Source: a bacterium (GTDB taxonomy: Bacteria > Patescibacteriota > Minisyncoccia > Phycocordibacterales > UBA9973). Taken from it: 64,000 nt of DNA. Below are positions 1,647 through 40,415 of the stretch, piece by piece. Made by a program: the position numbers and the translations under genes. Location of the stretch: positions 9,074-73,073 of the forward strand of contig JAKAKW010000011.1 of NCBI GenBank assembly GCA_021824345.1. Direction: 5' to 3'. The notes below the pieces were generated by a model, which saw only the letters and a program-made list of their open reading frames with translations, was not told where the DNA came from and did not search any database. How positions within the stretch are numbered: the first letter of the stretch is position 1; every line of letters starts with the position of its first letter.

Positions 1647-1771
1647 AACCGTTTTTTATAAATATGGGGTTTTCCACACGCAAATGGCGTATTTTTAATG
1701 CTTATAAAGGTATAATAAAGACTATTAATGGAAAAGAAAGACAAACAACCTGTCTAAATCAAACTATATTT

Positions 1772-4700: not shown

Positions 4701-7399
4701 CAGGCAGGACTTTCTTCCTTTACAACAATACCAAATCACTTGTTCCGACTTCTGAATCTCCTACCGGCTCTGGATTGCGAATTACTGCGACTAATAGTGC
4801 TCCTTCCGCCCCCGATCTAATCGCTGCAACGGTTTCCCCCACGGCGGCTAATACCGGGGTCTCCACCACCTTCTCCGCCACTATCACCAACCAAGGCACG
4901 GCCGCGACCGGCACCAGCTTCTACAACTTCTTCCAGAAAGCCACCGGTTCCGGAGGAACAGGGACGGTAACTGATCTCACCGCAACCCAAATGTCTGCCC
5001 TGGCGGCGGGAGGGACCGGCACGGCATCCGTCTCCACTTCCTTCCCCCCCGCAGGCACCTACTCCATGCGCGCCTGCGCGGACAAGAGTTCTTCTTCCAA
5101 TACCGGCACCATCACCGAATCAAATGAAAACAACAACTGCGGACCCTGGACGGATATTACGGTGACGACGCCGACAACGGTAGCTCCCGACCTCGTCGCC
5201 GGAGCGGTTGCCCCGACCACAGCCATCGCGGGTGACATCCAGCCTCTTTCTTCCGTGATCTCCAACCAAGGCAGTCTCTCCACTAATTCAAGTTTCTCCG
5301 TCAAGTTCAGCGTCTCCGCTTCTCCCAGCGGTACCGGGGCTTCCACTATCAACACAACCACCATGGCGGCCTTAAACAGCGGAACCAGCGCCACCGCCAC
5401 TGTCTCATATACCTTCCCTTCGGCCGGCACCTACTATGTCCAGGCCTGCGCTGATTCAACTAACGTAATCACCGAATCAAATGAGAACAACAATTGCGGG
5501 CCGTTGACGACTATTGCTGTATCGGTGCCCCTCCCCGTCTGTTCCGCTCCCTCCGTCAGCACCGGTACCTCCGCCTCCAACATTACTTCCAGTTCCGCCA
5601 CCGGTACCGGATATATCACTTCGGACGGCGGGTGCGCGGTAATCGTGAGCGGAGGCGTATGGAGCGTGTCTCATATCCCGACTACGGCGGATCCCGCTAC
5701 TTTAAGTCATACCACCGACGGCTGGGCAAGCGGGGGACCGTACAACATCAATATGACCAGCTTGTCTCCAAGCACTCCGTATTATTATCGCGCCTATGCC
5801 ACCAACTCGGCCGGCAAGACGGGATACGGGTCTGAAACACCCTTCACTACTTTGTCCATAATTCCGCCGACCTGTTCCGCTCCCTCCGTCAGCACCACTT
5901 CTCCGGCCGCGAGTATTACCCAATCATCGGCGGTCGGCGGAGGAACCATCTCTTCGGACGGCGGGTGTGCCGTCTCTGTGAGCGGAGTGGTATGGGGAAC
6001 TTCCAACAATCCGACATTCAACCCGAATTCCGGCCCGCTCACCGGTTCTACGGGCCAGACGACCGACGGCTGGGCCTCGGGCGGACCCTGGACCGACAAT
6101 ATGACCGGTCTTTCTCCGAGCACCCCATACTACTATCGCGCCTACGCGGAGAATAGCGCCGGTATCGCCTATGGCAACAATGTGTCTTTCACTACCTTGT
6201 CCGCCGCTTGTTCCGTTCCTTCCGTTACCACCGGTTATCCTCTGAGCAATATCGGCTACAATTCCGCTACTGGATCCGGAGCCGTAACCTGGTTTGCCGG
6301 CGACTGCCCGGCGACTGTGAGCGGGGTGGTATGGAGTACCGCGAGCGATCCGACATACAATCCCAATGCGGGCGCGTTTTCCGGTTCTTCCGGCCAAACC
6401 ACGGACGGAACGACGGCTCTTGGATCTTCTTGGTATGACACCATGACCGGTTTGTCTCCCGTCGCCAATTACCATTATCGCGCCTACGCGGTGAACAGCG
6501 CCGGAGTCGGATATGGCAACGATGTGGCTTTTTCCACCACCGTGGCGCCGCCGAATGCCATGACCGGGACTCTCTCCCCGAGCGCGAATTCCTGCGTCAT
6601 CAGCCAAAACGGCAACTCTTGTTATATAAACCTTTCCTGGAACACGACCAATCCGGCGGCGACGTCGGCTGTCACCTCATCGTATCCGAGCGCCAACACT
6701 GTTTTATTCAGCGGCAATTCCGGGACGAATGAGCTGGTTTGGATTCCATACAACTCCAGAGACTTGTATCTGTACAATAACGGCACTCTTTTGGACAGCA
6801 AGAACATAACATCTTCTTGCGCTCCCGGCACGACCTGGAACAACAGCGCTTGTATTCCCTCAGGCAGTCCGGTTTCCGTTTCCATTACCGCGGATTCTAC
6901 CCAGATAGCCTTGGGCGGTTCAACCACCTTGCGCTGGACATCCGCGGGCGCTTCTTCCTGTTCCGTCACTTCCACCCCTCCGGGATTTTCTTCCAATCTC
7001 ACCGCCGGAAGCGCCACTATCCAGCCTTCCGCTACTACCACCTATACGGCGCATTGCGGCGATAACCTTGGAAATTCCGCGAGCGATTCGGTCACTGTGC
7101 GGGTTTCTCTCTCCGCTCCATCGGTTACTCTGACCGCGAATCCGGCCGCTGTCGCGCAAGGGAGCCCCTCCACTCTTTCCTGGACTTCCGCCAACGCCAG
7201 TTACTGTTACGGGTCCAACTTCAATGTTCCCGCAAGCGGCCCCAGCACTTCCGGCTCCGTATCGGTGAGCCCGGCCGCCACCACAACCTATACCATCATT
7301 TGCGTGGCGCCGGACGGCACCCAAGTGACCGGTTCGGCTACCGTTACCGTTTTGCCTCCGGGTAATGGAGGAAAAGCGCCTGTATATAAGGAAAAGTAA
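1772..7399 (+). CDS. Giant (about 1875 aa) secreted/cell-surface protein with a glycine-rich region, three CARDB-like domains and several FN3-like tandem domains (putative adhesin)
   Basis: The ORF opens at 1664, but the first plausible start is the ATG at 1772 (MRKKIWIILLGVLAVAIGSFLLYG signal/TM). Residues about 190-360 are Gly-rich (GAGGGQGGGEGG...GGGGGGGAD...GGGGGGSGYYPGG). Three domains end in the CARDB signature ESNE[GN]NNCG[NP]W (about nt 3660-4030, 4800-5160, 5180-5520). Repeated ...LSP.T.YYYRAYA.NS.G..YG FN3-like modules follow. Clean rho-independent terminator downstream. Internal minus-strand track ORFs (2084..2614, 5924..6607, 6920..7414 etc.) are GC-rich frame artefacts. Confidence 0.8.
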   Translation: MRKKIWIILLGVLAVAIGSFLLYGKIFAALPPGPLISITTSVPANVDQGSTVYIGYTVDPRGYTTTCQWNNLGGSQSITSIGPSLVYTDNKMPLYGFSSSNSTASITCQNAQGTNTRTMAFSVWNKVSFNVISGVQQYVVPSGVSTIGIAVKGAGGGQGGGEGGSNSYPGANGGKGGVTVQFVNVTAGSAINIVAGGKGHGGGYNSGGGGGGASAAYYPSDGSSFKIIAGGGGGGGADAWDGNKIYGGVGGMGGTTTGGGGGGGAGNGAGTTLVDNNSYAQGGIAGGGGGGSGYYPGGTSSATGGYGGVAIGIFSAGQNATSSSGCGLYGKGGNGGSLLDAAGGVCNRASPTAGGDGLYSVTGSAITTNLSNAFSYGSASSGGSGGLQVGNDGSDGAVYIFTPSPTPPPPAPIIELSAQNVTMNTNSTAYSKITALTTNVSRLDCSVIALPSFLSSPSADCAQVAIKSGSTATSPNSPAQVSILAKGYDLNGNAITSSSSCLGTAVWNGQLGGCLATFDVTVVSTPSCTTTSQASNLTSTSATAGGNISDTGGVPIINHGVCYSTSVGSIQSNCPSDTSSVSTGSFAESLSNLSPGTSYYYQAFAQNSVGTTYCTNMGSFTTPQSTSYLPDLTPDPNYPGVTFPTPVVAGSSTTFSQRITNIGSASSGPFYTLVRFDNDANHATYNTSLSKEIFYPNNLVPTGIATISASQTLPSAGTWYVQACADISNESTMTGTISESNEGNNCGNWTQITVTSAPAVPTCTSPVVTNITDTSATVGGTITSDGGATITSRGVAVKSSTGSYIYTDLGGTTGPVTRDIINLTPGATYYFQAWANNSVGRGYCPETSFTALRNTTINGVCAPVHYNCAAGTSSSNALSFSGLNSVYSWGCLGSNGGVPASPSCSETLSMSGTLTSDAPSCVIQSGQSSCNVTLTWGTTNPQGVSSVTSPTDSTGASVSTRVGTGDSGSQLVSIPYPGRTFFLYNNTKSLVPTSESPTGSGLRITATNSAPSAPDLIAATVSPTAANTGVSTTFSATITNQGTAATGTSFYNFFQKATGSGGTGTVTDLTATQMSALAAGGTGTASVSTSFPPAGTYSMRACADKSSSSNTGTITESNENNNCGPWTDITVTTPTTVAPDLVAGAVAPTTAIAGDIQPLSSVISNQGSLSTNSSFSVKFSVSASPSGTGASTINTTTMAALNSGTSATATVSYTFPSAGTYYVQACADSTNVITESNENNNCGPLTTIAVSVPLPVCSAPSVSTGTSASNITSSSATGTGYITSDGGCAVIVSGGVWSVSHIPTTADPATLSHTTDGWASGGPYNINMTSLSPSTPYYYRAYATNSAGKTGYGSETPFTTLSIIPPTCSAPSVSTTSPAASITQSSAVGGGTISSDGGCAVSVSGVVWGTSNNPTFNPNSGPLTGSTGQTTDGWASGGPWTDNMTGLSPSTPYYYRAYAENSAGIAYGNNVSFTTLSAACSVPSVTTGYPLSNIGYNSATGSGAVTWFAGDCPATVSGVVWSTASDPTYNPNAGAFSGSSGQTTDGTTALGSSWYDTMTGLSPVANYHYRAYAVNSAGVGYGNDVAFSTTVAPPNAMTGTLSPSANSCVISQNGNSCYINLSWNTTNPAATSAVTSSYPSANTVLFSGNSGTNELVWIPYNSRDLYLYNNGTLLDSKNITSSCAPGTTWNNSACIPSGSPVSVSITADSTQIALGGSTTLRWTSAGASSCSVTSTPPGFSSNLTAGSATIQPSATTTYTAHCGDNLGNSASDSVTVRVSLSAPSVTLTANPAAVAQGSPSTLSWTSANASYCYGSNFNVPASGPSTSGSVSVSPAATTTYTIICVAPDGTQVTGSATVTVLPPGNGGKAPVYKEK
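5527..6545 (+). repeat. Three tandem ~340-bp repeats encoding FN3-like domains inside the giant surface protein
   Basis: Protein-level repeats CSAPSVST..SDGGCAV.VSGVVW......DGWASGGP....MT.LSPSTPYYYRAYA.NSAG..YG appear three times and are visibly similar at DNA level (cctccgtcagcacc...). Confidence 0.6.
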
Positions 7400-9444: not shown

Positions 9445-9473
9445 GAAGGGCGGAGGGTTACCCTCCGCCCTTC
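9445..9473. repeat. Family-A palindromic repeat (gaagggcggagggtTaccctccgcccttc, perfect 29-bp palindrome) between convergent pgk and HIT genes; likely bidirectional terminator
   Basis: Read from sequence. The same element recurs at 14454-14482 and 26628-26656. Confidence 0.7.
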
Positions 9474-9929: not shown

Positions 9930-9959
9930 CGTGGGAGGCCTTGCCTCCCACGTTTTTTT
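9930..9959. repeat. Family-B palindromic repeat (cgtgggaggccttgcctcccacg) followed by a T-run, in the divergent HIT / recJ spacer
   Basis: 9-bp stem gtgggaggc / gcctcccac with 3-nt loop, then ttttttt; copies at 25130, 31360, 31422, 37581, 37602. Confidence 0.65.
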
Positions 9960-14408: not shown

Positions 14409-15353
14409 ATGAATTCCAAAGCACTTATAAAAAATGAAAAGAAACCGCTTGCCGAAGGGCGGAGGGTAACCCTCCGCCCTTCGGCGCCCCAGAAACCCGT
14501 AAAAATTTTCCCCCTATATGCCGTTTTTGCGCTTCTAGCAATGGCTATTTTCCTGTTTTCGCTTGATTTGCGGAATTCTCGCCGAGGGCTAACTTTTGCC
14601 ATGCTTGACGTGGGCCAAGGAGACGCGCTTTTTATAGAATCTCCGACCGGCACTCGGATTCTGGTGGACGCCGGGCCTCCGCGGAAAATATTGGGACAAA
14701 TGGCAAGGGTAATGCCCGCCCTTGACCGCACTTTGGATGCGGTGATAATCACTCATCCGGATGCCGATCATATTTCCGGATTCGCGGACATTTTGGAAAA
14801 TTATAAAGTAAAAGAAATTTTTGATCCCGGCATCGCGGATGATTCCGCGCTGTATCAGAACATAAAAAAAATTGCGGAAGAAAAATCCGTGCAGAACATT
14901 CCCGCCAGGCGAGGCATGCGGTTAAATATTGGCGGCGGCGCGGTTATTGATATTTTGTTTCCCGACGCTGATGTTCGCGACTGGGAAACAAATGCAGGCT
15001 CCGTGGTGGCGCGCCTCTCTTATGGCGATACCTCCATACTGCTTGCCGGCGACTCTCCGATAGATACCGAAAAAATCATTTTGGCGCAAACACAGAGGAC
15101 GCTTCTCAAAAGTACGGCGCTGAAAGTGGGCCATCACGGTTCCAAAAATTCCAGTTCGGCCGAGTTCATTGAAGCGGTCGCGCCCAAGTATGCTCTCATT
15201 TCCGCGGGCAAAGAAAACAGATACGGCCATCCGGATCCCGCGGTACTGGACATCTTTGAAAAGTCCGGGATACAAGCGTTCCGCACGGACGAACACGGAA
15301 CCATTCTCATGCGCTCCGACGGCAAGACTGAAGCCTTTTCTTTTTATAAATAG
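14409..15353 (+). CDS. comEC: ComEC C-terminal metallo-beta-lactamase domain protein (separate ORF)
   Basis: TM helix then MLDVGQGDALFIESPTGTRILVDAGPP...IITHPDADHISG...GHHGSKNSSS: ComEC-type MBL domain. The start is uncertain: the family-A palindrome lies inside the first 25 codons, so the true start is probably downstream, e.g. the ATG at 14541. Confidence 0.7.
   Translation: MNSKALIKNEKKPLAEGRRVTLRPSAPQKPVKIFPLYAVFALLAMAIFLFSLDLRNSRRGLTFAMLDVGQGDALFIESPTGTRILVDAGPPRKILGQMARVMPALDRTLDAVIITHPDADHISGFADILENYKVKEIFDPGIADDSALYQNIKKIAEEKSVQNIPARRGMRLNIGGGAVIDILFPDADVRDWETNAGSVVARLSYGDTSILLAGDSPIDTEKIILAQTQRTLLKSTALKVGHHGSKNSSSAEFIEAVAPKYALISAGKENRYGHPDPAVLDIFEKSGIQAFRTDEHGTILMRSDGKTEAFSFYK
14454..14482. 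repeat. Family-A palindromic repeat copy (gaagggcggagggtAaccctccgcccttc)
   Basis: Identical to 9445-9473 apart from the central base; lies 45 nt inside the track ORF starting at 14409. Confidence 0.7.
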
Positions 15354-15361
15354 CACTATTA

Positions 15362-15479
15362 AGCAAAACTTCCGGTACTCTCTTCGGAGGGGGTTTGGCG
15401 AGCGGCGGCGAGCCAACTTCAGGGATTTTTAAGCTTCAAAAATCCCGTACCCGGAGAGGAGAGTACCGGAAGTTTTGCT
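15362..15479. repeat. Structured intergenic element: 21-bp perfect inverted repeats flanking an inner hairpin
   Basis: agcaaaacttccggtactctc (15362-82) and gagagtaccggaagttttgct (15459-79) are perfect inverted repeats about 76 nt apart. The spacer contains the hairpin gggatttttaagcttcaaaaatccc (15422-46). Located between the comEC-lactamase stop and the glyA start. Confidence 0.6.
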
Positions 15480-21926: not shown

Positions 21927-22346
21927 CTAAGGAAAATAGGGATCTTTATTCTTCAGCACCAATTTTTTTGCTTCTTCAGCTAGGCGTTTGAATTTTTCTT
22001 CATCCTCATCCGTGAGCGAGTTTAATTTTTCAAATATTTCATTGAGCTTAGCTGTTCTTTTGGGATACTTTTCGATTCCGTTTTTCATTCTCTTATATTC
22101 AACAGCATCATCCCCGAACTTATTTTTTACTTCTCCCAACAATTTTTCCATTGTAGGAAAAAGATTTTCTTTTATTTCTTTATTAACCTCTGCAAATTTC
22201 CCATTCTGTTTTCTTAATTCCCTTACAAAATATGTGAGTGTAATTAAACATTCCTCAAAACCCAGGTTGTCAGGCACAGTCGTTAGATCTTCCTTCCCAG
22301 CATTCGTTTTTTCCATCTCGTTTCCATTCATATCAATATTGTACAT
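21927..22346 (-). CDS. Hypothetical K/E-rich coiled-coil protein (antisense to flanking genes)
   Basis: 139-aa ORF with no recognisable domain; AT-richer than flanks. Confidence 0.4.
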   Translation of the reverse strand: MYNIDMNGNEMEKTNAGKEDLTTVPDNLGFEECLITLTYFVRELRKQNGKFAEVNKEIKENLFPTMEKLLGEVKNKFGDDAVEYKRMKNGIEKYPKRTAKLNEIFEKLNSLTDEDEEKFKRLAEEAKKLVLKNKDPYFP

Positions 22347-22398
22347 TTTTTATATCAAGATGTAAAAACAAGGCCTTTATGATAGAATCATTTCCATA

Positions 22399-25300
22399 AT
22401 GGCTTCCGGTGAAGAATCTAAAAAATCCGAATCTGCTCGGCGCGAAGAGCGGATTTTGGAGTTCTGGAAGGAGAATAAAATTTTTGAAAAAACTCTGGGA
22501 AAGCCGTCCCCCAAGGGGGAATTCGTTTTCTACGAAGGTCCGCCTACGGCCAATGGCAAACCTCACATAGGGCACTTTGAGGCGCGTTCTTTCAAGGATG
22601 CCGTTCCCAGGTACAAGACCATGCGCGGATACCATGTGCGTCGGAAAGGCGGATGGGACACCCACGGCCTGCCTGTGGAGCTTGCGGTGGAGAAAAAACT
22701 CGGGCTTAGTTCCAAAAAGGGGATAGAGGAATACGGAATTGCCAAGTTCAACGAGCAATGCAAGGAAAGCGTATGGGAATATGTGAACCTATGGGAAAAG
22801 TTCACCGAGCGCGTGGGATACTGGGTGGATCAGAAGGATGCCTACGTCACTTACCATAACGATTACATTGAATCTCTTTGGAATATCGTAAAAAAAATAG
22901 ATGAACAAGAACTGCTTTACAAGGATTACAAAGTGGTTCCGTGGTGTCCGCGCTGCGGGACGGCCCTTTCCTCGCACGAATTGGCGCAGGGATATGAGGA
23001 TGTGAAGGATCTGTCGGTGTATGTGAAATTCCGCGTGAAATCTTCGCCTGACGCTTTTGCGAAGGTCCTCGGTTCCCCTCGCACAAAGCTTGCTCCTTCG
23101 GAGCTGGAAGCTCGGCCAGACCATTCGCAAAAGCATTCAGTCGAGGATTTCACATATATTCTGGCATGGACCACTACCCCCTGGACTTTGCCGGGCAACG
23201 TTGCTTTAGCGGTAGGAAAAGATATTGATTACACCGCTTTGCGCGTAAAAGGGGTTTCCGAATTGTATATTCTCGCAAGCGATAGGGTAAAGAGTGTCTT
23301 TGAAGGGCAGGAAATTGAAATTGTGCATGACAACATAAAAGGATCAGATCTTGTCGGCCTGGAATACGAACCCTTGTATCCGTATTTCGCGAACACTCTT
23401 CCTGAGAGCGAAAAGTCCAAACTTCCAAAAGCATACAAGGTTTACGAAGCGGATTTTGTGACAACCGTTGACGGCACGGGCGTGGTGCATACCGCCGTGA
23501 TGTACGGACAAGACGACTTCGTGCTGGGCACCGCTATCGGTTTGCCCAAGCACCATCTCGTGGGTCTGGACGGGAAATTCCTGGCCGGCACTGATTTTCT
23601 TGAAGGAAGATTCGTGCGAGACGAAGATGTGGCAGTGGACATTATCAAAGACCTTGCGCACCGGAACCTTTTGCTAAAGAAAGAAAAGTACGAACACTCA
23701 TATCCTTTCTGCTGGCGCTGCCATACCGCGCTCATATATTACGCGCGGGACTCGTGGTACATAAAAGTTTCAGATCCGCGGATTAAGGAAAAGATGATTT
23801 CTGAGAATGAGAAGATAAACTGGGAGCCGGCGCACATTCGGGACGGGCGTTTCGGAGAATGGCTGCGCGATATCAAGGACTGGGCGATTTCCCGCGAGCG
23901 GTACTGGGGAACTCCGCTTCCGGTGTGGACATGCGAGAAATGCAACCAGAGGATTACCATCGGAAGCATTGAGGAACTGAAAAAGCATACGAAGAAATCC
24001 GGCAATCGGTACTTCTTTATGCGGCATGGAGAAGCAGAGAGCAATGTTAAGGGTATGGTGGCTTGCAGAGTGGAGGATAACGATAATTTAATCGAGGCCG
24101 GGAAACAACAAGTATTGTCTTCGGCAAAACAACTAAAAGAAAAGAATATTGATCTTATTTTCTCCTCGGATATTTTGAGGACGAAAGAGACAGCTGAAAT
24201 TGTTAAAAAAGAAATTAGTACTGAAAAAGAAATAATTTTTGACAAGCGCCTGCGCGAGTGGAACGTAGGAAAATTTGACGGAAAAACATGGCACGAATAT
24301 AAAAAATTTGCGCGCCAACACGATGATTGGTACAGTTTTATCCCTGAGGGAGGCGAATCATTCAAAGATATAAAGATTAGAGTTTTTGATTTCATTTACG
24401 AATTGGAGAATAAATACCAAGGGAAAAATATCTTGATCGTCACTCACCAGGCTCCGATTGTAGTTATTCTTAAGGGTTTAGATAAACTTAATGATGAAGA
24501 TACAAAGGCAGGTGATAGCGATGTGAACTTAAGATTCAAGGGAGGAGAGTTTAAAGAGATAGATTTTACCTTACTTCCCCACAACAAAAACTACGAGCTG
24601 GATTTGCACCGGCCATACATAGACGAGGTTCCGCTGGTCTGCGATTGCGGAGGAAAACTTTCTCGTACACCGGAGGTTATGGACGTCTGGTTTGATTCCG
24701 GTTCCATGCCGTTTGCCCAGGATCATTATCCTTTTGAGAACAAAGACTGGATTGACGATCACGGATATCCGGCTGATTTCATATCGGAGGCCATAGATCA
24801 GACTCGCGGATGGTTCTATACCCTGCACGCCGTGGGAGCGCTTGTGGGGAAGGGCAGGGCATACAAAAATGTAATCTGTCTCGGACACCTGATGGATGCC
24901 GAGGGAAAGAAAATGTCAAAACATATCGGCAACGTAGTGGACCCCTGGGAGATGATAGAGAAATACGGGGCGGATACTTTGCGATTATGGATGTACTCCA
25001 TAAACCAGCCGGGCGAGTCCAAGAATTTTGATGAAAAAACGGTGGTGCTTCTCCACCGGCAAATGTTCGGTCTGCTTTACAATGTGCTTTCTTTCTACGA
25101 GCTTTACCGCGACAAAGAGCTTGAGACGATGGGAGGCAAGGCCTCCCACCGGCCTGCCTCGGAAAATATTCTGGATAAGTGGATAATTACGCGATTAAAC
25201 GAGCTGGAGATTCTGTGCACGGAAAATCTTGAGAAATATAAATTATTGGAACCCGTGCGGGCCATGCGCGATTTCATCGACGATCTGTCCACTTGGTATT

Positions 25301-26016
25301 TGCGCCGATCCAGGGAGCGCATTAAGGACGGGGACAAGGATGCCAAGCGCACTTTGTACTTTGTGTTGAAAAATCTTGCCAAGCTTCTGGCCCCGTTCGC
25401 TCCTTTTGCCACCGAGGATATATGGCAAAAGCTTAAAAGCGATGAGGACCCTGCAAGCGTTCATTTGTCCGAGTGGCCGTACAAGGACCAATCCCTTTTG
25501 CAAAAGCTTTTCGGAAAGAAAGAAAAAGTGGATTACTCAGTGCTGGAAAATATGCGCCGAGCCAGGCAGATTGTGACAATGGGCTTGGAAGCTCGGCAGA
25601 AAGCGGGCATAAAGGTGCGCCAACCGCTCGGACTTTTGAGGATAAAGGATCGGAATCTTTCATCGGAGTATGAAGAGCTCATCAAGGACGAGCTCAATGT
25701 TAAAGAAATTGCCAAAGATGCCGGCCTAGAAGGAGAAGTGTTGCTTAATACTGAAATTACTCCTGAACTTAAAGAAGAAGGCGACTATCGCGAACTGGTT
25801 CGCGCTATTCAGGATATGCGCAAAGAGGCGGGGCTCTTACCGAGCGACATGGTAACGCTTCTTTTGGATACTGATGAATCTGGCGAAAAGCTGGCCAAAA
25901 AATTTGAAGAAGATCTGAAGAAAACTGTTAGCGCCGAAAAAATTGAATTCACGGAAAGCGACGGTCCGGAAATCAAAATCGGCAATTCAGCGTTTAAGAT
26001 AAAAATTCAAAAATAG
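22399..26016 (+). CDS. ileS: Isoleucine--tRNA ligase (type 2) carrying three insertions
   Basis: HIGH (PTANGKPHIGH), CP1 editing (WTTTPWTLPGN), KMSKS (KMSKHIGN). 1205 aa is about 150-200 aa longer than typical type-2 IleS. Insertions at 23062-23128, 24001-24570 and 25130-25148 are annotated separately. Confidence 0.9.
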   Translation: MASGEESKKSESARREERILEFWKENKIFEKTLGKPSPKGEFVFYEGPPTANGKPHIGHFEARSFKDAVPRYKTMRGYHVRRKGGWDTHGLPVELAVEKKLGLSSKKGIEEYGIAKFNEQCKESVWEYVNLWEKFTERVGYWVDQKDAYVTYHNDYIESLWNIVKKIDEQELLYKDYKVVPWCPRCGTALSSHELAQGYEDVKDLSVYVKFRVKSSPDAFAKVLGSPRTKLAPSELEARPDHSQKHSVEDFTYILAWTTTPWTLPGNVALAVGKDIDYTALRVKGVSELYILASDRVKSVFEGQEIEIVHDNIKGSDLVGLEYEPLYPYFANTLPESEKSKLPKAYKVYEADFVTTVDGTGVVHTAVMYGQDDFVLGTAIGLPKHHLVGLDGKFLAGTDFLEGRFVRDEDVAVDIIKDLAHRNLLLKKEKYEHSYPFCWRCHTALIYYARDSWYIKVSDPRIKEKMISENEKINWEPAHIRDGRFGEWLRDIKDWAISRERYWGTPLPVWTCEKCNQRITIGSIEELKKHTKKSGNRYFFMRHGEAESNVKGMVACRVEDNDNLIEAGKQQVLSSAKQLKEKNIDLIFSSDILRTKETAEIVKKEISTEKEIIFDKRLREWNVGKFDGKTWHEYKKFARQHDDWYSFIPEGGESFKDIKIRVFDFIYELENKYQGKNILIVTHQAPIVVILKGLDKLNDEDTKAGDSDVNLRFKGGEFKEIDFTLLPHNKNYELDLHRPYIDEVPLVCDCGGKLSRTPEVMDVWFDSGSMPFAQDHYPFENKDWIDDHGYPADFISEAIDQTRGWFYTLHAVGALVGKGRAYKNVICLGHLMDAEGKKMSKHIGNVVDPWEMIEKYGADTLRLWMYSINQPGESKNFDEKTVVLLHRQMFGLLYNVLSFYELYRDKELETMGGKASHRPASENILDKWIITRLNELEILCTENLEKYKLLEPVRAMRDFIDDLSTWYLRRSRERIKDGDKDAKRTLYFVLKNLAKLLAPFAPFATEDIWQKLKSDEDPASVHLSEWPYKDQSLLQKLFGKKEKVDYSVLENMRRARQIVTMGLEARQKAGIKVRQPLGLLRIKDRNLSSEYEELIKDELNVKEIAKDAGLEGEVLLNTEITPELKEEGDYRELVRAIQDMRKEAGLLPSDMVTLLLDTDESGEKLAKKFEEDLKKTVSAEKIEFTESDGPEIKIGNSAFKIKIQK
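23062..23128 (+). repeat. About 66-nt repeat element inserted in-frame in ileS (encodes roughly AKVLGSPRTKLAPSELEARPDHSQ); second copy at 36154-36215
   Basis: aggtcctcggttcccctcgc...agctggaagctcggccagaccat has a 23-nt identical core and about 75-80% identity over 70 nt with the tatD-rpsF spacer copy. From a remembered T. thermophilus IleS alignment, this IleS has about 28 extra residues between VKFRVK and WTTTPWTLPGN. Confidence 0.65.
24001..24570 (+). other. Inserted histidine-phosphatase (phosphoglycerate-mutase-like) domain within ileS
   Basis: FFMRHGEAESN (RHG catalytic motif), IFSSDILRTKETAEIV, DKRLREWNVG, IPEGGES, IVTHQAPI match the PhoE/GpmB-type histidine phosphatase fold. The insert lies between the conserved PVWTCEKC...ELKKH and DLHRPYIDEV...VMDVWFDSG IleS segments and is AT-richer than the flanking ileS sequence. 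Confidence 0.7.
25130..25148. repeat. Family-B palindrome copy (tgggaggcaaggcctccca) in-frame inside ileS, encoding GGKASH
   Basis: Exact match to the intergenic family-B element (31422-31440); translates as MGGKASH within a variable IleS linker. Confidence 0.6.
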
Positions 26017-26627: not shown

Positions 26628-26656
26628 CCAGGGCGGAGGGTTACCCTCCGCCCTAG
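26628..26656. repeat. Family-A palindromic repeat copy (core gggcggagggttaccctccgccc)
   Basis: Same core as 9445 and 14454; outer arms slightly degenerate. Sits after the NUDIX gene and before a TATAAT-containing promoter region for the next gene. Confidence 0.65.
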
Positions 26657-29983: not shown

Positions 29984-31327
29984 ATGAGCAAAGAAAAAAA
30001 ATCGGAAGAGAACAATTTGATGGAAAAAATCGTGTCGCTCTCTAAGCGGCGGGGGTTCATTTTCCAAGGATCGGAAATATACGGAGGCTTGGCCGGCACC
30101 TGGGATTACGGCCCCTTGGGACTGGCCCTGAAGAAAAATATAGAAAGCCTGTGGTGGAACCGCTTTGTGGATTCGCGGGAGGATATGTACGGCATCGACT
30201 CCGCGATACTGATGAATCCGCGAGTGTGGGAGGCGAGCGGGCATGTGTCCGGTTTTTCCGATCCTCTGGTGCAGTGTGAAAAATGCAAGCGCCGTTTCCG
30301 GGCGGATCATTTGGAAAACGCTTCAAAATGCCCGGATTGCGGAGGAAAACTCGGGGAACCCAGGCAATTCAATATGATGTTCAGAACCTCCGTCGGTTCG
30401 GTGGACGGTTCGGATATGGCGGTATATTTGCGTCCGGAAACGGCGCAGGGAATGTTCGTGAATTTCAAAAATATTATTGATTCATATCATCCCAGAATGC
30501 CTTTCGGCATAGCCCAAATCGGCCGGGCTTTTCGGAACGAAATCGCTCCCCGCGATTTTATCTTCCGGGTAAGAGAGTTGGAAATCATGGAATTTGAATA
30601 TTTTGTTCGGGAAGATGAGTGGAAGGGCATTTTTGAGTATTGGCGCAAAGAAATGCTTTCCTGGTTTTTATCGCTCGGTTTTGAAGAAAGCGACATAAAG
30701 GAAGTGGAAATACCGGAGGAAGATCGAGCGCACTATTCCAAGCGCACCGTAGATTTTCATTTCAATTTCCCCCATAAATTTGATGAAATTGCCGGCCTCG
30801 CTTATCGCACCGGTTTCGATCTGGAGAACCACATCAGGGAGAGCGGATCGGATTTGTCGTATTTGGATCCGGTGTCCGGCGAAAGATTCGTCCCTCACGC
30901 GCTTGAGCCCACTTTCGGCCTCGGCCGGCATCTTTTGGCCGTTCTATCCAAGGCTTATACCGAAGACAATCTCGGCGGAGAAACAAGAGTTTTTCTAAAA
31001 TTCCCCGCAAGGCTGGCACCGATCAAAGCGGCCGTGTTTCCTTTGCTCAAAAACAAGCCGGAATTGGTAAAAAAAGCGAGAGATATATATGAGACCCTGA
31101 AGAAAGAAGTGCCTCAGACTGAATTTGACGACAACGGCAACATCGGCAAGCGCTATCGCCGGCAGGATGAAATCGGCACTCCCTGGTGCATTGTGGCGGA
31201 TTTCGACACCTTGGAAGACGACACGGTTACAGTTCGCGACAGGGATACCGGAAAACAGGAGAGGATGAAAATTGCGGAACTGTCCGGATATATTAAAGAA
31301 AAGCTGGCGGCAGGAAGTTTGCGATAG
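29984..31327 (+). CDS. glyQS: Glycine--tRNA ligase (alpha2 dimeric type)
   Basis: RRGFIFQGSEIYGGLAGTWDYGPLG..., class II motifs, insertion domain with the C..C pair. Confidence 0.9.
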   Translation: MSKEKKSEENNLMEKIVSLSKRRGFIFQGSEIYGGLAGTWDYGPLGLALKKNIESLWWNRFVDSREDMYGIDSAILMNPRVWEASGHVSGFSDPLVQCEKCKRRFRADHLENASKCPDCGGKLGEPRQFNMMFRTSVGSVDGSDMAVYLRPETAQGMFVNFKNIIDSYHPRMPFGIAQIGRAFRNEIAPRDFIFRVRELEIMEFEYFVREDEWKGIFEYWRKEMLSWFLSLGFEESDIKEVEIPEEDRAHYSKRTVDFHFNFPHKFDEIAGLAYRTGFDLENHIRESGSDLSYLDPVSGERFVPHALEPTFGLGRHLLAVLSKAYTEDNLGGETRVFLKFPARLAPIKAAVFPLLKNKPELVKKARDIYETLKKEVPQTEFDDNGNIGKRYRRQDEIGTPWCIVADFDTLEDDTVTVRDRDTGKQERMKIAELSGYIKEKLAAGSLR

Positions 31328-31352
31328 GAAAACAGCGGGTGCACGGCAGCAG

Positions 31353-31446
31353 CGGGAGAGTGGGAGGCCTTGCCTCCCACTTTTTAATATGTGTCCTGCC
31401 AGGCCACGACTTCTAGGAGTGGGAGGCAAGGCCTCCCACTCTCCCG
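31353..31446. repeat. Pair of family-B palindromes in inverted orientation with extended 28-bp arms, flanking a 37-nt spacer
   Basis: cgggagagtgggaggccttgcctcccac (31353-80) ... agtgggaggcaaggcctcccactctcccg (31418-46); MITE-like or nested-hairpin architecture between glyQS and the M16 peptidase gene. Confidence 0.65.
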
Positions 31447-31487
31447 CCGGGCTTCCTACAAGCTTTTGATTATGGTATGTTTTATGG

Positions 31488-35307: not shown

Positions 35308-36123
35308 ATGCCGAAATACATAGATATACATTGCCATACGAACTTTCAGGTGTTCAAAGAAGATTATAAAGACGTTATAAAGCGGGCGCTCCGGGGCGAT
35401 ACCTGGCTCATAAATGTCGGCACCCAGGCGGATACTTCCCAAAGGGCCATAGAAATCGCCCGTGAATATCCGGAAGGAGTTTATGCTTCCATCGGCCTGC
35501 ATCCCATTCATACCGGCAAGTCATATCACGACGAGAAGGAGCTCGGGGAGGGAGGCGCGGAATTCACTTCCCGGGGAGAGGTTTTTGACCATGATACGTA
35601 TCTTGCCTTGGCGAAAGATCCGAAGACGGTTGCAATAGGGGAATGCGGCCTTGATTACTATCGCACCGAACCCGAATCCATTGAAAAGCAAAAGCAGGCG
35701 TTCATCGCGCAGATAGAATTGGCCAATGAAGTTGGCAAGCCTCTCATGCTTCATGTGCGCGACGCTTACGAAGATACTCTGGAAATTTTAAAAAAGTATG
35801 CCAAAGTAAAGGGAGCGGTGCATTTTTTTGTCGGCACGCCCGCGCAGGCGAAAAATTTTCTGGATTTTGGTTTTATGCTTTCCTTTACCGGAGTGCTGAC
35901 TTTCACTCATGATTATGATGAGGTTGTAAAAGCCGCTCCGCTTGATATGATTTTGAACGACACTGATTCGCCTTATGTGGCTCCCGTGCCGCACAGGGGA
36001 AAACAAAACGAGCCGGCGTACATACGGGAAGTGACAAAGAGAATCGCCGAGCTGAAAGGAATATCTGAAGAAGAAGCGGCCTCCGCCATCATGGCAAACG
36101 CCCGGCGGCTGTTCAAGATCTAG
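35308..36123 (+). CDS. tatD: TatD-family metal-dependent hydrolase
   Basis: IDIHCHTNF (HxH) start and the TatD conserved His/Glu/Asp pattern. Confidence 0.85.
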   Translation: MPKYIDIHCHTNFQVFKEDYKDVIKRALRGDTWLINVGTQADTSQRAIEIAREYPEGVYASIGLHPIHTGKSYHDEKELGEGGAEFTSRGEVFDHDTYLALAKDPKTVAIGECGLDYYRTEPESIEKQKQAFIAQIELANEVGKPLMLHVRDAYEDTLEILKKYAKVKGAVHFFVGTPAQAKNFLDFGFMLSFTGVLTFTHDYDEVVKAAPLDMILNDTDSPYVAPVPHRGKQNEPAYIREVTKRIAELKGISEEEAASAIMANARRLFKI

Positions 36124-36127
36124 AAGG

Positions 36128-36241
36128 GCCGGGGAACGCACAGGAGTTCTGCTAGGTCCTCGTTCTCCTCGCTTTAGGTCCGCTTCTACGAAGCTGGAAG
36201 CTCGGCCAGACCATCGCAGAGCTCCTGTGCGTTCCCCGGCC
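36128..36241. repeat. MITE/RPE-like element: 26-bp inverted repeats flanking a 62-nt core shared with ileS
   Basis: ggccggggaacgcacaggagttctgc (36128-53) pairs with gcagagctcctgtgcgttccccggcc (36216-41) with one mismatch. The core 36154-36215 matches ileS 23062-23128. Confidence 0.65.
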
Positions 36242-36294
36242 TATTCATATTCCTTTCGGCCTGAAATTGGACTTTTAAAGCCCTTTCTGTTAAT

Positions 36295-36849
36295 ATGCAG
36301 CATATGTCAGAGACGGAAAACGATGACAAAAAATCCGCAGAAATCGCGGAAAATAAAGACACGGCCGAATCGGCAAAATCCGCCGGGAAGCAGATATACG
36401 AGCTCGGCTATCTTTTGGTGCCCACCATTGCTGAGGAAAACGCCCCTGCGTTGTTCGGCAACCTGAAAGAATTAGTGGTTTCTTTCGGCGGAGAGATAAT
36501 TTCCAGCGAAATGCCCAGAATGATCCGCCTTGCTTATGTAATGGCCAAAACCATTGATAACGTAAAAAACAAGTTTGATACGGCATATTTCGGATGGATA
36601 AAGTTTGAGGCGGAAAAGAGCGCCGTCGCTGAAATAAAGAAGAAGCTTGACGCAAACACCGACCTTATCCGCTTCCTGATCACCAAAACCGTCCGGGAAA
36701 ACACTCTTGCTCCGAAGAAGTTCAGCGGAGGCGGTTCAAGCAGGTATCGCGGATCCGCCGAACACAAGGAGGAAAAAGAGCCCTCCGCTCCCATGGATGA
36801 AGAGAAAGTGGACAAGGAAATAGAAGCCCTGGTAACCGAGGCGGCTTAA
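36295..36849 (+). CDS. rpsF: 30S ribosomal protein S6 with N- and C-terminal extensions
   Basis: Core IYELGYLLVPTIAEENAPALFGNLKELV...RLAYVM...DLIRFLITKT matches S6; rpsF-ssb-rpsR operon context. Start could be 36295 or 36304. Long charged C-terminal tail. Confidence 0.7.
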   Translation: MQHMSETENDDKKSAEIAENKDTAESAKSAGKQIYELGYLLVPTIAEENAPALFGNLKELVVSFGGEIISSEMPRMIRLAYVMAKTIDNVKNKFDTAYFGWIKFEAEKSAVAEIKKKLDANTDLIRFLITKTVRENTLAPKKFSGGGSSRYRGSAEHKEEKEPSAPMDEEKVDKEIEALVTEAA

Positions 36850-37556: not shown

Positions 37557-37578
37557 CGAATTTTATAAGTTTTAATGA

Positions 37579-37630
37579 AGGTGGGAGGCCTTGCCTCCCT
37601 AAAGGAGGCAAGGCCTCCCACCTTTTCTTT
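37579..37630 (+). terminator. Terminator of the rpsF-ssb-rpsR operon built from two abutting family-B palindromes
   Basis: ggtgggaggccttgcctccc taaa ggaggcaaggcctcccacc followed by ttttctttat. Confidence 0.7.
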
Positions 37631-38213: not shown

Positions 38214-40415
38214 TTAACCGCCCGCCTGTTCCGAGAACTTTTTTCGGATATCCTTCAAAATCTGGCCCGCGATTTTCGGATTTTCTTTCAAAAATGTCCG
38301 AGTGGAATCGTAGCCCCGTCCGAGCTTCACTTCCTCTTCGCCATCCGGCTTGCCCGCCTGCCCGGTTGGCTTGTATGAATACGAACTGCCGGACTTTTCC
38401 AAGATCTTAAACTTTTCTCCGAGGGCGATGAGTTCGCCTTCTTTGGAGATGCCTTCGTTATAAATGATGTCGAATTCCGTCTGCTTGAACGGCGCGGCTA
38501 CTTTGTTTTTTACCACTTTCACTCGTGTTCGCGATCCCACCACTTCTTCTCCTTTCTTTATTTGGGCGATGCGCCGGATGTCCATTCGAACACTTGTGTA
38601 AAACTTAAGAGCCTTGCCTCCGGGCGTTGTTTCCGGCGAGTTGCTGACCAGGCAGCCATCCGCAAAATAATTGTGGTTATCAGCGACGCTTATATCAAAT
38701 CTTTGCCGGCTTATCCTCTGGCCATCATGGTACGGCGTACGGGTTCTGATTTCTTTTATTATCATCGGGCGCAATATCTGGCTTTGCTTTGATTGTTGAG
38801 GATCCGTCTGATGATAGCGCCCGCGGTATTTTTCAGGAAGCTTGTATTCCATGGACTTAGGAACGAAAGGGGATATCAGTTCAAAGAATTTATCCGACTC
38901 TGCGGCACTAAAACCCAGCACTTGATATTCTCCGCATTTCCTCCATTTGGGCGCAATATCATAGCGGGCGAATATCCGGTTGATTCTGTCAACGCTCTCC
39001 GGCTGATTTCCGAAGGCGTTGGCGTACAGCCCGGCTCTCGGCCGCCGCGCGTACCATTTTCCTTTCCATTCTGAAAGTCCGGTCTGCATTGTTCCGTCTC
39101 CGCAGTACCATAAAGCTATCATGCGAGGAGTAATTTGCTCCACCAAAAACTCCGGCACGATCTTTTTTTGTTGCGGATAAAACAGTCCGTGTAGGTCTCC
39201 GATGCGCAGAAGATGTTTGGTTTCCACAATGGCATTTCCCCTAGAATTTTCCATTACGACATTGCTGGCGATATCGCCCAATTCCTCTGCGAGCCATGAC
39301 ACGTATTGGGATTGTTCTGCTCCATGTTCCTCCCTGAAATATGCGGTTTGTTCGTTAAATTTCTTAATGTTTCCATCTCCCAGCAAAGAGCCGATGATAA
39401 TCTCCTCTTGTTCCGGGGAGAGGTCTATATTATTTATATTCACTGATATCTCATCTCCGGCTTTCAGTTCCTTGGCCTTTTTCCAGCCAGCCGGCGTATA
39501 TATTTTGTGGTCGGGAGTGCAGGAAAATCCTCTTCGTCCGTTTCCCGTATGGTTTTGAACAAAAAACTGCAAGAATGAATCCGTTTCTCCGTTTATGTGC
39601 CAGTCAGTTATGAACTTTGCTTCTACGCATTTCTTTTCAAAATTATAAGAAAGCACCTTCACTTTTTTAGTTTGATTGACAATTTTCCCGATTTTTTCTT
39701 TCGTTCCGTCGGCCAGCAGCACTTTCGTATCGTAGGAAAAACATCCGAACATCACCCCGATCTGCATTCTGATTTGGTTTATGAAAATCACTACGGTCTT
39801 GCTTCGCGCCACGATTGCCGTGAGCTTGCGCAGAGCTTGGGACATAAGCCGGGCCTGCTTGCCCACATGATATGCTCCCATATCTCCCTCGATTTCATCT
39901 TTTGGAGTAAGGGCTGCCACCGAGTCCACCACCACCACGTCAATCTTGCCGGTGCGCACAAGCGATTCCACTATTTCCAGCGCCTGTTCTCCGGTATCCG
40001 GCTGGGAAATCAGGAGTTCGTTTATGTTGACGCCGAGACGTTTGGAATATTCCGGATCCATGGCATGCTCCGCGTCAATGTACGCGCATATTCCGCCTTT
40101 CTTTTGCGCCTCCGCCACTATATGCAGGGACAGGGTAGTCTTCCCGCTGGACTCCGGGCCGAAAATTTCGATAATCCTTCCGCGGGGAATGCCTCCGACC
40201 CCCAAGGCCATATCCAGGCCGATTGAGCCCGTGGGTATTACGTTCACATCCACCTTCGGGGTATCCCCGAATTTCATAATAGTGCCTTCGCCAAACTTGG
40301 TCTGCAGGGCTTTCAGGGTGTCTTCCAATCCTGAAGCGTTTCCGCCTTTTCCGGCGGAACCCTTTTTTTCTTCACTTATTTCCTTCTGGGGGTCGGTTTT
40401 TGTTTTTTTAGGCAT
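38214..40415 (-). CDS. recA: Recombinase RecA interrupted by a 368-aa intein
   Basis: N-extein has Walker [10 protein letters not shown] and ...[11 protein letters not shown]-extein resumes [23 protein letters not shown].... Between them is a Cys1...VSN intein with LAGLIDADG motifs. Confidence 0.9.
38640..39743 (-). mobile_element. RecA intein with LAGLIDADG homing-endonuclease domain
   Basis: Starts [14 protein letters not shown] (block A, Cys1), ends [11 protein letters not shown]|S (terminal Asn, +1 Ser). Internal [11 protein letters not shown] and [18 protein letters not shown] motifs. 1104 nt = 368 codons, in frame, at the MFG|SPETT site. Confidence 0.85.

Follow-up and report, generated by a model that had tools for sequence, protein, structure and literature searches.

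Palindromic DNA Repeats with a Conserved Apical Core, In Frame within ileS and Other Essential Genes of Paceibacteria-Like Bacteria

INTRODUCTION

Among the closest described counterparts of the sequences treated here are the Rickettsia palindromic elements (RPEs), which are about 150 bp long, form ten families, and account for 44 insertions in R. conorii, nearly half of them within open reading frames (ORFs) (Ogata et al. 2000, via PMC10969869). Here, we analyze a 64-kb stretch of contig JAKAKW010000011.1 (called the window below, meaning the whole stretch) in which one hairpin-forming sequence is read in frame within ileS and a related one lies in the spacer between a tatD-like gene and rpsF. 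The likeness is close: both are hairpin-capable repeats of ~100 to 150 nt that are dispersed in a small reduced genome, often sit in frame and stop free in unrelated housekeeping genes, lie between genes too, and have no transposase of their own. Like RPEs, the present elements probably add a peptide to tolerated parts of proteins. As with RPEs, the insert studied here is lineage specific. The hosts differ, RPEs belonging to Alphaproteobacteria, whereas the closest homologs of the window's IleS are named Candidatus Paceibacterota, Nomurabacteria, or Minisyncoccia, which places the host in the Candidate Phyla Radiation (CPR; Patescibacteria); the likeness is one of behavior.

Several other systems bear comparison. 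Repetitive extragenic palindromic (REP) sequences and REPINs are hairpin repeats thought to be handled as single-stranded DNA by RAYT, a single-copy domesticated transposase of the Y1/HUH type; they share with the present elements a maintained hairpin structure and terminator-like positions such as that of the tatD-rpsF copy. The 3' end of tRNA genes is a classic target of integrases and recombinases, the stem-loop symmetry of these genes being the usual integrase core site, and work by Williams from 2002 is said to deal with integrase sublocation preferences and with the tRNA 3'-end attachment sites of integrative elements. Hairpin or palindromic repeats are also found in organelles, as the GC clusters of yeast mitochondria exemplify. 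Those of the mitochondrion and plastid of Volvox have been described (PMC2670323). Such organelle repeats resemble the present elements in being selfish palindromes of short length, in spreading through compact genomes, and in turning up occasionally inside protein-coding genes. Finally, MITEs (transposable elements of miniature size that have inverted repeats), which are likewise short, non-autonomous, inverted-repeat elements able to fuse in frame with host ORFs, have intragenic in-frame representatives in Coxiella (QMITE1), in intragenic ERIC sequences, and in Anabaena (PMC10969869, PMC5896051). Our searches of the literature turned up no account of elements of this kind from CPR bacteria.

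RESULTS

The 23-mer AGCTGGAAGCTCGGCCAGACCAT, which a preliminary description of this DNA had reported to be shared by ileS and the spacer, is found on the + strand at 23102-23124 and again at 36192-36214, and nowhere else in the window; none of 100 dinucleotide-preserving shuffles contained a match, even at 3 mismatches. Around it, the two copies are 79% identical without gaps over 53 nt (23072-23124 versus 36162-36214), and with two 1-nt indels, the alignment runs from AGGTCC (23063 and 36154) to CGCA on the 3' side of the 23-mer, giving a shared core of ~62 nt. The preliminary observation is confirmed, but what had been taken for an element of ~66 nt is really the apex of hairpins of 119 nt in ileS and 115 nt in the spacer. 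A template/variable pair of a diversity-generating retroelement was considered and dropped, the mismatches not being specific to A.

In ileS (22399-26016, + strand; 1205 aa), the full hairpin occupies 23035-23153 on the + strand, about residues 213 to 252 of IleS (VKSSPDAFAKVLGSPRTKLAPSELEARPDHSQKHSVEDFT), at the entry to the CP1 editing domain. Its outer arms are GTGAAATCTTCGCCTGA and TCAGTCGAGGATTTCAC, of which the outermost 6 bp (GTGAAA/TTTCAC) may be native ileS rather than insert. The part that matches our family model, R1 (23049-23135, + strand; see below), comprises the inner stem GCTTTTGCGA / TCGCAAAAGC and the conserved core; the core itself (23063-23124, + strand), AGGTCCTCGG...GGCCAGACCAT, has an extended apex and contains the hairpin GCTCCTTCGGAGC as well as the 23-mer. 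This copy is in frame, as first claimed, and encodes ...AKVLGSPRTKLAPSELEARPDHSQKH...; all six reading frames of the window core are without stop codons.

The spacer copy (36127-36241, + strand) begins 4 nt past the stop codon of the tatD-like gene (35308-36123, + strand; PF01026 TatD_DNase, also in syntenic loci) and lies upstream of rpsF (36295-36849, + strand; PF01250 Ribosomal_S6 on the syntenic gene in loci L018, L020, and L021). Its arms, 36127-36152 and 36216-36241, form 26 bp with 96% complementarity and enclose a core at 36154-36214, which with the inner stem makes up the segment 36141-36227 (+ strand). Downstream of the element, a promoter-like TTGGAC...TAATAT precedes rpsF, seen by eye and not listed in a scan. 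The closing arms of the two window copies are unrelated in sequence, and their apical hairpins, GCTCCTTCGGAGC in ileS versus GCTTCTACGAAGC in the spacer, differ by a compensatory C-G to T-A change. Folded as RNA, both give long hairpins, with -57.1 kcal/mol (z, -6.0) for 23030-23158 and -78.2 kcal/mol (z, -9.0) for 36120-36250.

A 20-mer scan of one genome per species returned 16 matches, 2 of which were true relatives, both on JAKALJ010000005.1 (metagenome-assembled genome WY5.bin123); the remaining 14, due to chance or to a high-GC coding motif, GWKLGQT, were discarded. That contig, which belongs to a related genome, carries three copies: the first interrupts a uvrC-like ORF and uses the frame of the ileS copy (...PRPKFAPSELEARPDHSGKH...); the second lies between genes upstream of uvrB, closed by a 28-bp stem (L002 2847-2908); and the third is inside uvrB, in a frame different from that of the ileS copy. 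The window's ileS core differs from the intergenic one at 5 of 62 positions and is nearer to it than to its partner in the window. An identical 30-nt sub-hairpin, TTTTGAAATCTGCCACCCGGCAGATTTCAA, stands just after AGGTCC both in the uvrC copy (L001 812-841) and in the ileS copy of L018 (10669-10698, approximate), which suggests nested insertion or exchange between copies of the element. As a separate matter, the 20-mer GCTGGAAGCTCGGCCAGACC found in high-GC bacteria (L004, L007, L009, L011, L013, L016) encodes the conserved ...GWKLGQT... and is unrelated to the element; the surrounding peptides hint at an ABC-type permease.

JGI/ENA metagenomes were searched with a pattern consisting of the core ends AGGTCCTCGGTTC and CCAGACCAT separated by 10 to 40 nt. 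Copies were found in at least 120 metagenome stretches, with 123 matches and, among the matches listed, 113 unique copies, on which all counts out of 113 below rest. The usual metagenome core, the 40-nt AGGTCCTCGGTTCTCYGGGTCCCTATCCCRGCCAGACCAT, is enclosed by an inner stem with a T-rich and an A-rich side. The two outer arms of one copy pair with each other, but the arms vary between copies, their mean identity over all pairs (0.475) being that of unrelated sequence (background, 0.50). An exact 21-mer of the window subfamily had no match in JGI metagenomes, and this longer-apex subfamily is therefore rare there. At the protein level, six-frame peptide and peptide-profile queries for translated elements yielded no candidates in a word-indexed search, and when the 37-aa insert was searched exhaustively against cluster representatives, no match came back, clustering at 50% identity hiding the insert.

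A covariation test on 56 of the metagenome copies covered three helices, namely, the outer stem, a GGTC/GACC helix, and a 5-bp apical stem. Standard pairs filled 87.8% of cells versus 67.5% in shuffles, changes on both sides were seen in 222 cells versus 70.6, and the covariation score was 0.444 versus 0.12 in shuffles and 0.08 to 0.14 with slid partners. The hairpin is kept by compensatory change. From the same 56 copies, with the window copies left out, we built the covariance model R1. In cmsearch, it found the ileS copy at 23049-23135 over the full model (50 bits; E, 9.4e-12) and the spacer copy at 36141-36227 (39.1 bits; E, 1.7e-8), the only significant hits in the 64 kb, with all others at an E of >0.2; in 705 kb of fetched loci, it had 72 hits.

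These data dispose of an alternative raised in the preliminary description, a one-time duplication of ~66 nt from ileS into the tatD-rpsF spacer, and equally of one in the opposite direction, neither of which would involve a repeat family. The window, holding just two copies, would fit such a single local duplication, yet a model built without either copy detects both, the ileS copy is closer to an intergenic copy of another genome (5 differences in 62) than to its 79%-identical partner, and the element recurs in at least 120 other stretches, spread over many genes and metagenomes; we regard the idea as refuted. Both window sequences belong to one widespread hairpin family that occurs in frame in unrelated essential genes and between genes.

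To characterize the site in IleS, we took 116 orthologs and examined the segment that DLSV and WTTTPW enclose. It is empty in 51 of them, with a minimal segment of 16 aa (...KFKxKGQENTYILA), forms a 26-aa loop in 14, and has 27 to 58 aa in ~45, with many differing sequences, several of which have the motif SPDAFxQVLGS...PDHSxKH in common. In the window, the segment is 49 aa long, that is, 33 residues more than at empty sites rather than the ~28 first estimated. Given such varied inserts and so many empty sites, the IleS insert is lineage specific, and the site is a hot spot. An 11-aa remnant of the element, apparently decayed, persists in ortholog P0078. At the DNA level, five insert-bearing ileS orthologs keep the basal stem and the core ends AGGTCCTCGG ... 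CCAGACCAT and differ in their apices (22 nt in three of them and 43 nt in the window); copies recognized solely through ileS orthology show no variation in their core ends. The copy in L018 contains two sub-hairpins (fold, -92.3 kcal/mol; z, -14.9), and at least 3 compensatory double changes separate its arms from those in the window. An origin of the arms from an inverted target-site duplication was dropped, the peptide of neither arm being present in empty-site orthologs. In an AlphaFold model of IleS residues 1 to 450, the one host protein modeled, insert residues 228 to 247 have a predicted local distance difference test (pLDDT) score of <50 and lie between strands 206-213 and 252-258, which would make the insert the tip of a β-hairpin beside the CP1 domain (pLDDT, ~90); the model as a whole is mediocre (mean pLDDT, 64.7).

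The tatD-rpsF spacer is similarly variable: the window has the present family there and L018 a different hairpin family, while L020 and L021 have no long hairpin element. This second family (...GGGGTCGCTGTCTC...CGACGGCTTGCGAGACACCCC...), which fills the spacer of the sister genome L018 at 22300-22440, also stands at the IleS hot spot of P0006, P0023, P0026, P0044, and P0046, where it reads ...GSLSPSxDGALPLGSSACETP...; two hairpin families thus share the same two sites. Apart from these hairpins, IleS contains an inserted histidine-phosphatase domain, PF00300 (around ...NRYFFMRHGEAESN...), which is present in 120 of 120 listed homologs and so is a feature of the clade, not particular to this genome.

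The preliminary description would have given up the repeat family if all related IleS proteins had the peptide and further copies were lacking, which is not what we find. Counting as intragenic a core well inside an ORF of at least 150 aa, and taking random 40-nt windows of the same loci as the control, we found 71 of the 113 copies (63%) in long ORFs versus 789 of 1130 random windows (70%); there is essentially no depletion from coding DNA. Three frames dominate among the 71 intragenic copies: (+,1) with 24, giving ...QVLGSPGPxPGQTI... or ...PDHSxKH; (+,2) with 20, giving ...GPRFSGSLSRPDH...; and (-,1) with 24, giving ...NGLAGVGDPENRGPEK...; (+,0) and (-,2) account for 2 and 1. The share of intact ORFs is far above that expected if frame and stops were irrelevant, which argues that the inserts are read through. 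Translational bypass or an excised intervening sequence was dropped as an explanation, the frames always being intact and three of them dominant. Hosts among the listed copies include UvrD-like helicases (10 to 11), SMC/RecN (7), PheT (6), class I synthetases (5), and TsaD, KsgA, UvrC, UvrB, and class-V aminotransferases (5 each), as well as LigA and the CCA-adding enzyme. With copies in uvrC and uvrB, at least 120 metagenome stretches, and 25 distinct host sites among the listed copies, the original proposal of a palindromic repeat that, as RPEs do, inserts both in frame and between genes in an unrelated lineage is supported.

Both orientations of the core occur, across genomes, at 8 of the 16 host sites with several members. 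This might be expected of an intragenic inverton-like switch, whose inverted arms would let the core flip within a population and recode a loop of the host protein, and it is true that the arms are long, near-perfect inverted repeats and that both orientations are stop free in the frames used. Copies of opposite orientation at one host site, however, have arms with ~0.45 to 0.55 identity, against a background of 0.50. Unrelated arms point to independent insertions at the same tolerant site, which fit better than inversion, and arms that are not conserved offer no evident site for a site-specific invertase; a switch of this kind is very improbable. Copies of the same orientation in related genomes, by comparison, have arms with 0.8 to 0.96 identity versus 0.70 to 0.77 in the host flanks. 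In 9 pairs of copies, mostly intergenic, arms at least 80% identical stand in unrelated flanks, and 3 more pairs have flanks of borderline identity; this suggests that the whole hairpin may be the unit that moves.

In viral contigs, the core pattern had a single hit, which is no copy of the element but the 3' third of a tRNA-Pro(CGG) gene (L143 8711-8787) adjoining a serine recombinase ORF. The core ends correspond to positions 44 to 56 and 69 to 77 of this tRNA, a match that was found with the search pattern itself; in the alignment, tRNA positions 44 to 77, AGGTCCTCGGTTCAAATCCGAGTAGCCAGACCA, face AGGTCCTCGGTTC, a gap, and TCCGGGTCCCTATCCCGGCCAGACCA of the element. A second match, which we count as independent of the search pattern, is that of the 13-mer AGGTCCTCGGTTC to positions 44 to 56 (variable loop, T stem, and start of the T loop) of a CPR tRNA-Lys(UUU) (L109 3894-3967). 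Compared with the 65 tRNAs of the loci, 15 of 5000 core shuffles matched a tRNA that well. The core thus appears similar to the 3' third of a tRNA, from the variable loop and T arm to the acceptor strand and CCA, and may be derived from a tRNA 3' end. The window itself contains no tRNA genes by ARAGORN.

This resemblance, together with the very stable predicted folds (z, -9.0, -6.0, and -14.9) and the position of the spacer copy where a terminator would be expected, raises the question of whether the element acts as RNA, be it as a signal for mRNA stability, processing, or pausing, as a tRNA-like tag (for RNase P, RNase Z, or the CCA-adding enzyme), or as a small RNA gene. We think this quite unlikely. 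Rfam 15 gave no hits in the window at gathering score, and its permissive mode, run on two elements, returned at most microRNA-hairpin noise below threshold. The aligned stems of the 56 copies contain very few G-U pairs, and on the mRNA sense strand of intragenic copies, G·U-type mismatches number 47 versus 78 of the A·C type, so that wobble is not enriched. Elements lie in both orientations relative to host genes, cleavage within essential mRNAs would be harmful, and no T-run follows the spacer copy. With G-U pairs rare, no sense-strand enrichment, both orientations in use, and no T-run, the palindrome is most simply a DNA-level rather than an mRNA-level feature. A self-cleaving ribozyme and a canonical intrinsic terminator were dropped as candidates, the first for want of an Rfam hit and the second for want of a T-run after the spacer copy. 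As an observation in its own right, arm mismatches in ~110 metagenome copies (L023-L142) are asymmetric on the strand written AGGTCC..., with 80 to 85 of the A·C type versus 45 to 49 of the G·T type; wobble pairs would therefore be commoner on the complementary strand.

The window holds other repeats as well. A shorter palindrome family (GTGGGAGGCCTTGCCTCCCAC and a variant) is in frame in ileS at 25130-25150, where it adds 5 residues, GGKAS, that most orthologs lack (IleS of P0002 has a different insert at this position); its other copies, at 9931-9951, 31360-31381, 31419-31439, and 37578-37624, are terminator-like and intergenic. A perfect 30-bp inverted repeat with a 36-nt loop (31352-31447; fold, -89.3 kcal/mol; z, -10.4), whose arms include this palindrome, sits in the 160-nt spacer between a class II synthetase gene and an M16 peptidase gene, a spacer of ~50 nt in L018. 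The Lactamase_B and SHMT genes are separated by a spacer that is filled by a Y-shaped hairpin of 118 nt (15362-15479; fold z, -9.0), whose arms of 24 bp are topped by two apical hairpins; in L018, these genes overlap, so this looks like an inserted hairpin of a different family. Copies of a third palindrome family, GAAGGGCGGAGGGTTACCCTCCGCCCTTC, stand at gene ends in three places (9445-9473, 14454-14482, and 26628-26656). The class II synthetase gene contains an inverted repeat (30278-30457) that we rejected as a hairpin insert, the extra residues there forming a Cys-rich, zinc-ribbon-like segment. Among the other genes, RecA (38214-40415, - strand; 733 aa) contains an intein that carries a homing endonuclease domain of the LAGLIDADG type (PF14890, PF03161), and an ORF of 1911 aa with internal repeats of ~330 to 350 nt (1664-7399) adjoins a protein with a Por secretion-system C-terminal sorting domain (713-1540).

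DISCUSSION

Our preferred reading, to which we give a probability of roughly 0.6, is that the two window copies represent a non-autonomous, hairpin-forming (palindromic) DNA family of ~90 to 120 nt in Paceibacteria-like CPR bacteria that spreads in the manner of RPEs, as whole hairpins, into tolerant sites. The element would be built from a copy-specific outer stem of ~15 to 25 bp, an inner stem that is semi-conserved and has a T-rich and an A-rich side (cTTTTTcTC / TtcgAAAAAg; GCTTTTGCGA / TCGCAAAAGC in ileS), and a conserved core, AGGTCCTCGGTTC...GGCCAGACCAT, bearing a small covarying apical hairpin. The window copies would form a longer-apex subfamily, and their identical 23-mer would be owed to this subfamily together with the family-wide 3' end of the core. 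Whole hairpins would enter new sites, as near-identical arms in unrelated flanks indicate, and the elements thus appear to be, or to have been, mobile in this form. In coding DNA, a copy would survive only if it is in frame, free of stops, and in a tolerant surface loop, where it would yield a Gly/Pro/Ser-rich and probably disordered peptide. Tolerant sites such as the CP1 entry of IleS and the UvrC linker may be hit repeatedly, with apices exchanged or nested between copies, and the hot spots would then reflect tolerance, possibly plus targeting. The complementarity of the arms would be kept at the DNA level, by template-switch (quasi-palindrome) repair and/or by selection for a single-stranded DNA hairpin or cruciform, with no function in mRNA indicated. 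Both the creation and the maintenance of hairpins by template switching have been documented (PMC8794818). More speculatively, the tRNA-3'-end-like core might be recognized by a trans-acting enzyme that moves or maintains the element.

A number of observations weigh against this account. The density of copies is modest, with 2 in the 64-kb window and ~6 beyond the ascertained copies in 705 kb, and many copies at a given host site appear to have been inherited vertically. We caught no insertion event between near-identical genomes, and mobility is deduced from distribution only. Inspection of the flanks of 23035-23153 and 36127-36241 revealed no target-site duplication, and the genes of the window include none for a transposase, reverse transcriptase, or integrase. 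The conservation of the core is inflated, since 22 of its ~40 positions are fixed by the search pattern, and its free interior is ~76% identical between same-site copies versus 68% for the host flanks. Translation of the inserts is deduced from their intact frames. Finally, the conservation of core and arms in essential genes could equally reflect a function for the host.

This last point leads to the main rival of the reading given above, which is that these are not selfish elements but genomic sites maintained by the host. The core, exposed on a cruciform or single-stranded DNA hairpin, would be bound by a conserved protein, with the arms needing merely to be palindromic, and the role could lie in chromosome organization, replication or repair, DNA uptake, or site-specific recombination. 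Compensatory changes in the arms with almost no G-U pairs, arms better conserved than flanks in same-orientation copies (0.8 to 0.96 versus 0.70 to 0.77), core ends invariant even where copies were found by ileS orthology alone, low copy number with recurrent sites in housekeeping genes, and a core like the tRNA 3' end that recombinases classically target would all suit such sites. The distribution would not: presence is patchy, with 51 of 116 IleS sites empty and orthologous spacers that lack the element or hold another family, different hairpin families replace each other at one site, copies decay to short remnants such as the 11 aa in P0078, and no site is universally conserved, unlike an essential cis-acting site. 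We consider host-maintained sites an unlikely explanation.

The systems introduced above differ from the present elements in several respects. RPE families are defined by similarity along the whole element, whereas only the apical core and inner stem are shared here; the CPR element, in addition, has a core that appears similar to a tRNA 3' end, shows no depletion from coding DNA (63% versus 70% expected), recurs at hot spots, and occurs in both orientations. In MITEs, the terminal inverted repeats are common to the whole family and stem from a parent insertion sequence, and target-site duplications are usual. Neither feature is seen here: outer-arm identity is at the level of unrelated sequence (0.475), and the two window copies, those inspected, lack duplications. 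REP sequences are extragenic with a conserved stem, but 63% of the listed copies of this family lie within genes, and conservation falls on the loop, or apical core, instead of the stem, which sets them apart from the REPIN-RAYT system too. Organelle repeats belong to organelle rather than free bacterial genomes, and no conserved tRNA-like core is described for them. As for tRNA attachment sites, the core ends do match tRNA-Pro(CGG) positions 44 to 56 and 69 to 77 beside a serine recombinase gene, yet the element is no tRNA gene or fragment in its normal context, has long copy-specific arms, and has no integrase next to it.

We tentatively advance a bolder proposal, which we hold to be more doubtful than our preferred reading. 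The family might represent an undescribed, perhaps CPR-wide class of elements in which a core derived from a tRNA 3' end rides on copy-specific DNA palindromes that are actively kept complementary, mostly inside essential genes without coding depletion, and that are moved or maintained by a core-recognizing enzyme rather than by way of terminal repeats. A conserved apical core with copy-specific, covarying arms is at odds with the transposon logic of conserved ends.

CPR genomes are very small, have come almost exclusively from metagenomes, and are believed to contain few mobile elements. The family described here would be an independent and apparently much more widespread case of RPE-like behavior within this radiation. 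It would explain many of the lineage-specific, low-complexity inserts in CPR aminoacyl-tRNA synthetases, UvrABC, SMC, and TsaD, with consequences for annotation, alignment-based phylogeny, and structure prediction, and its copies could serve as natural markers for tracking strains and lineages. Should a core-recognizing enzyme indeed be at work, its mode of mobilization would be unlike those of MITEs, REPINs, and RPEs, and the elements would systematically supply CPR proteins with new surface loops.

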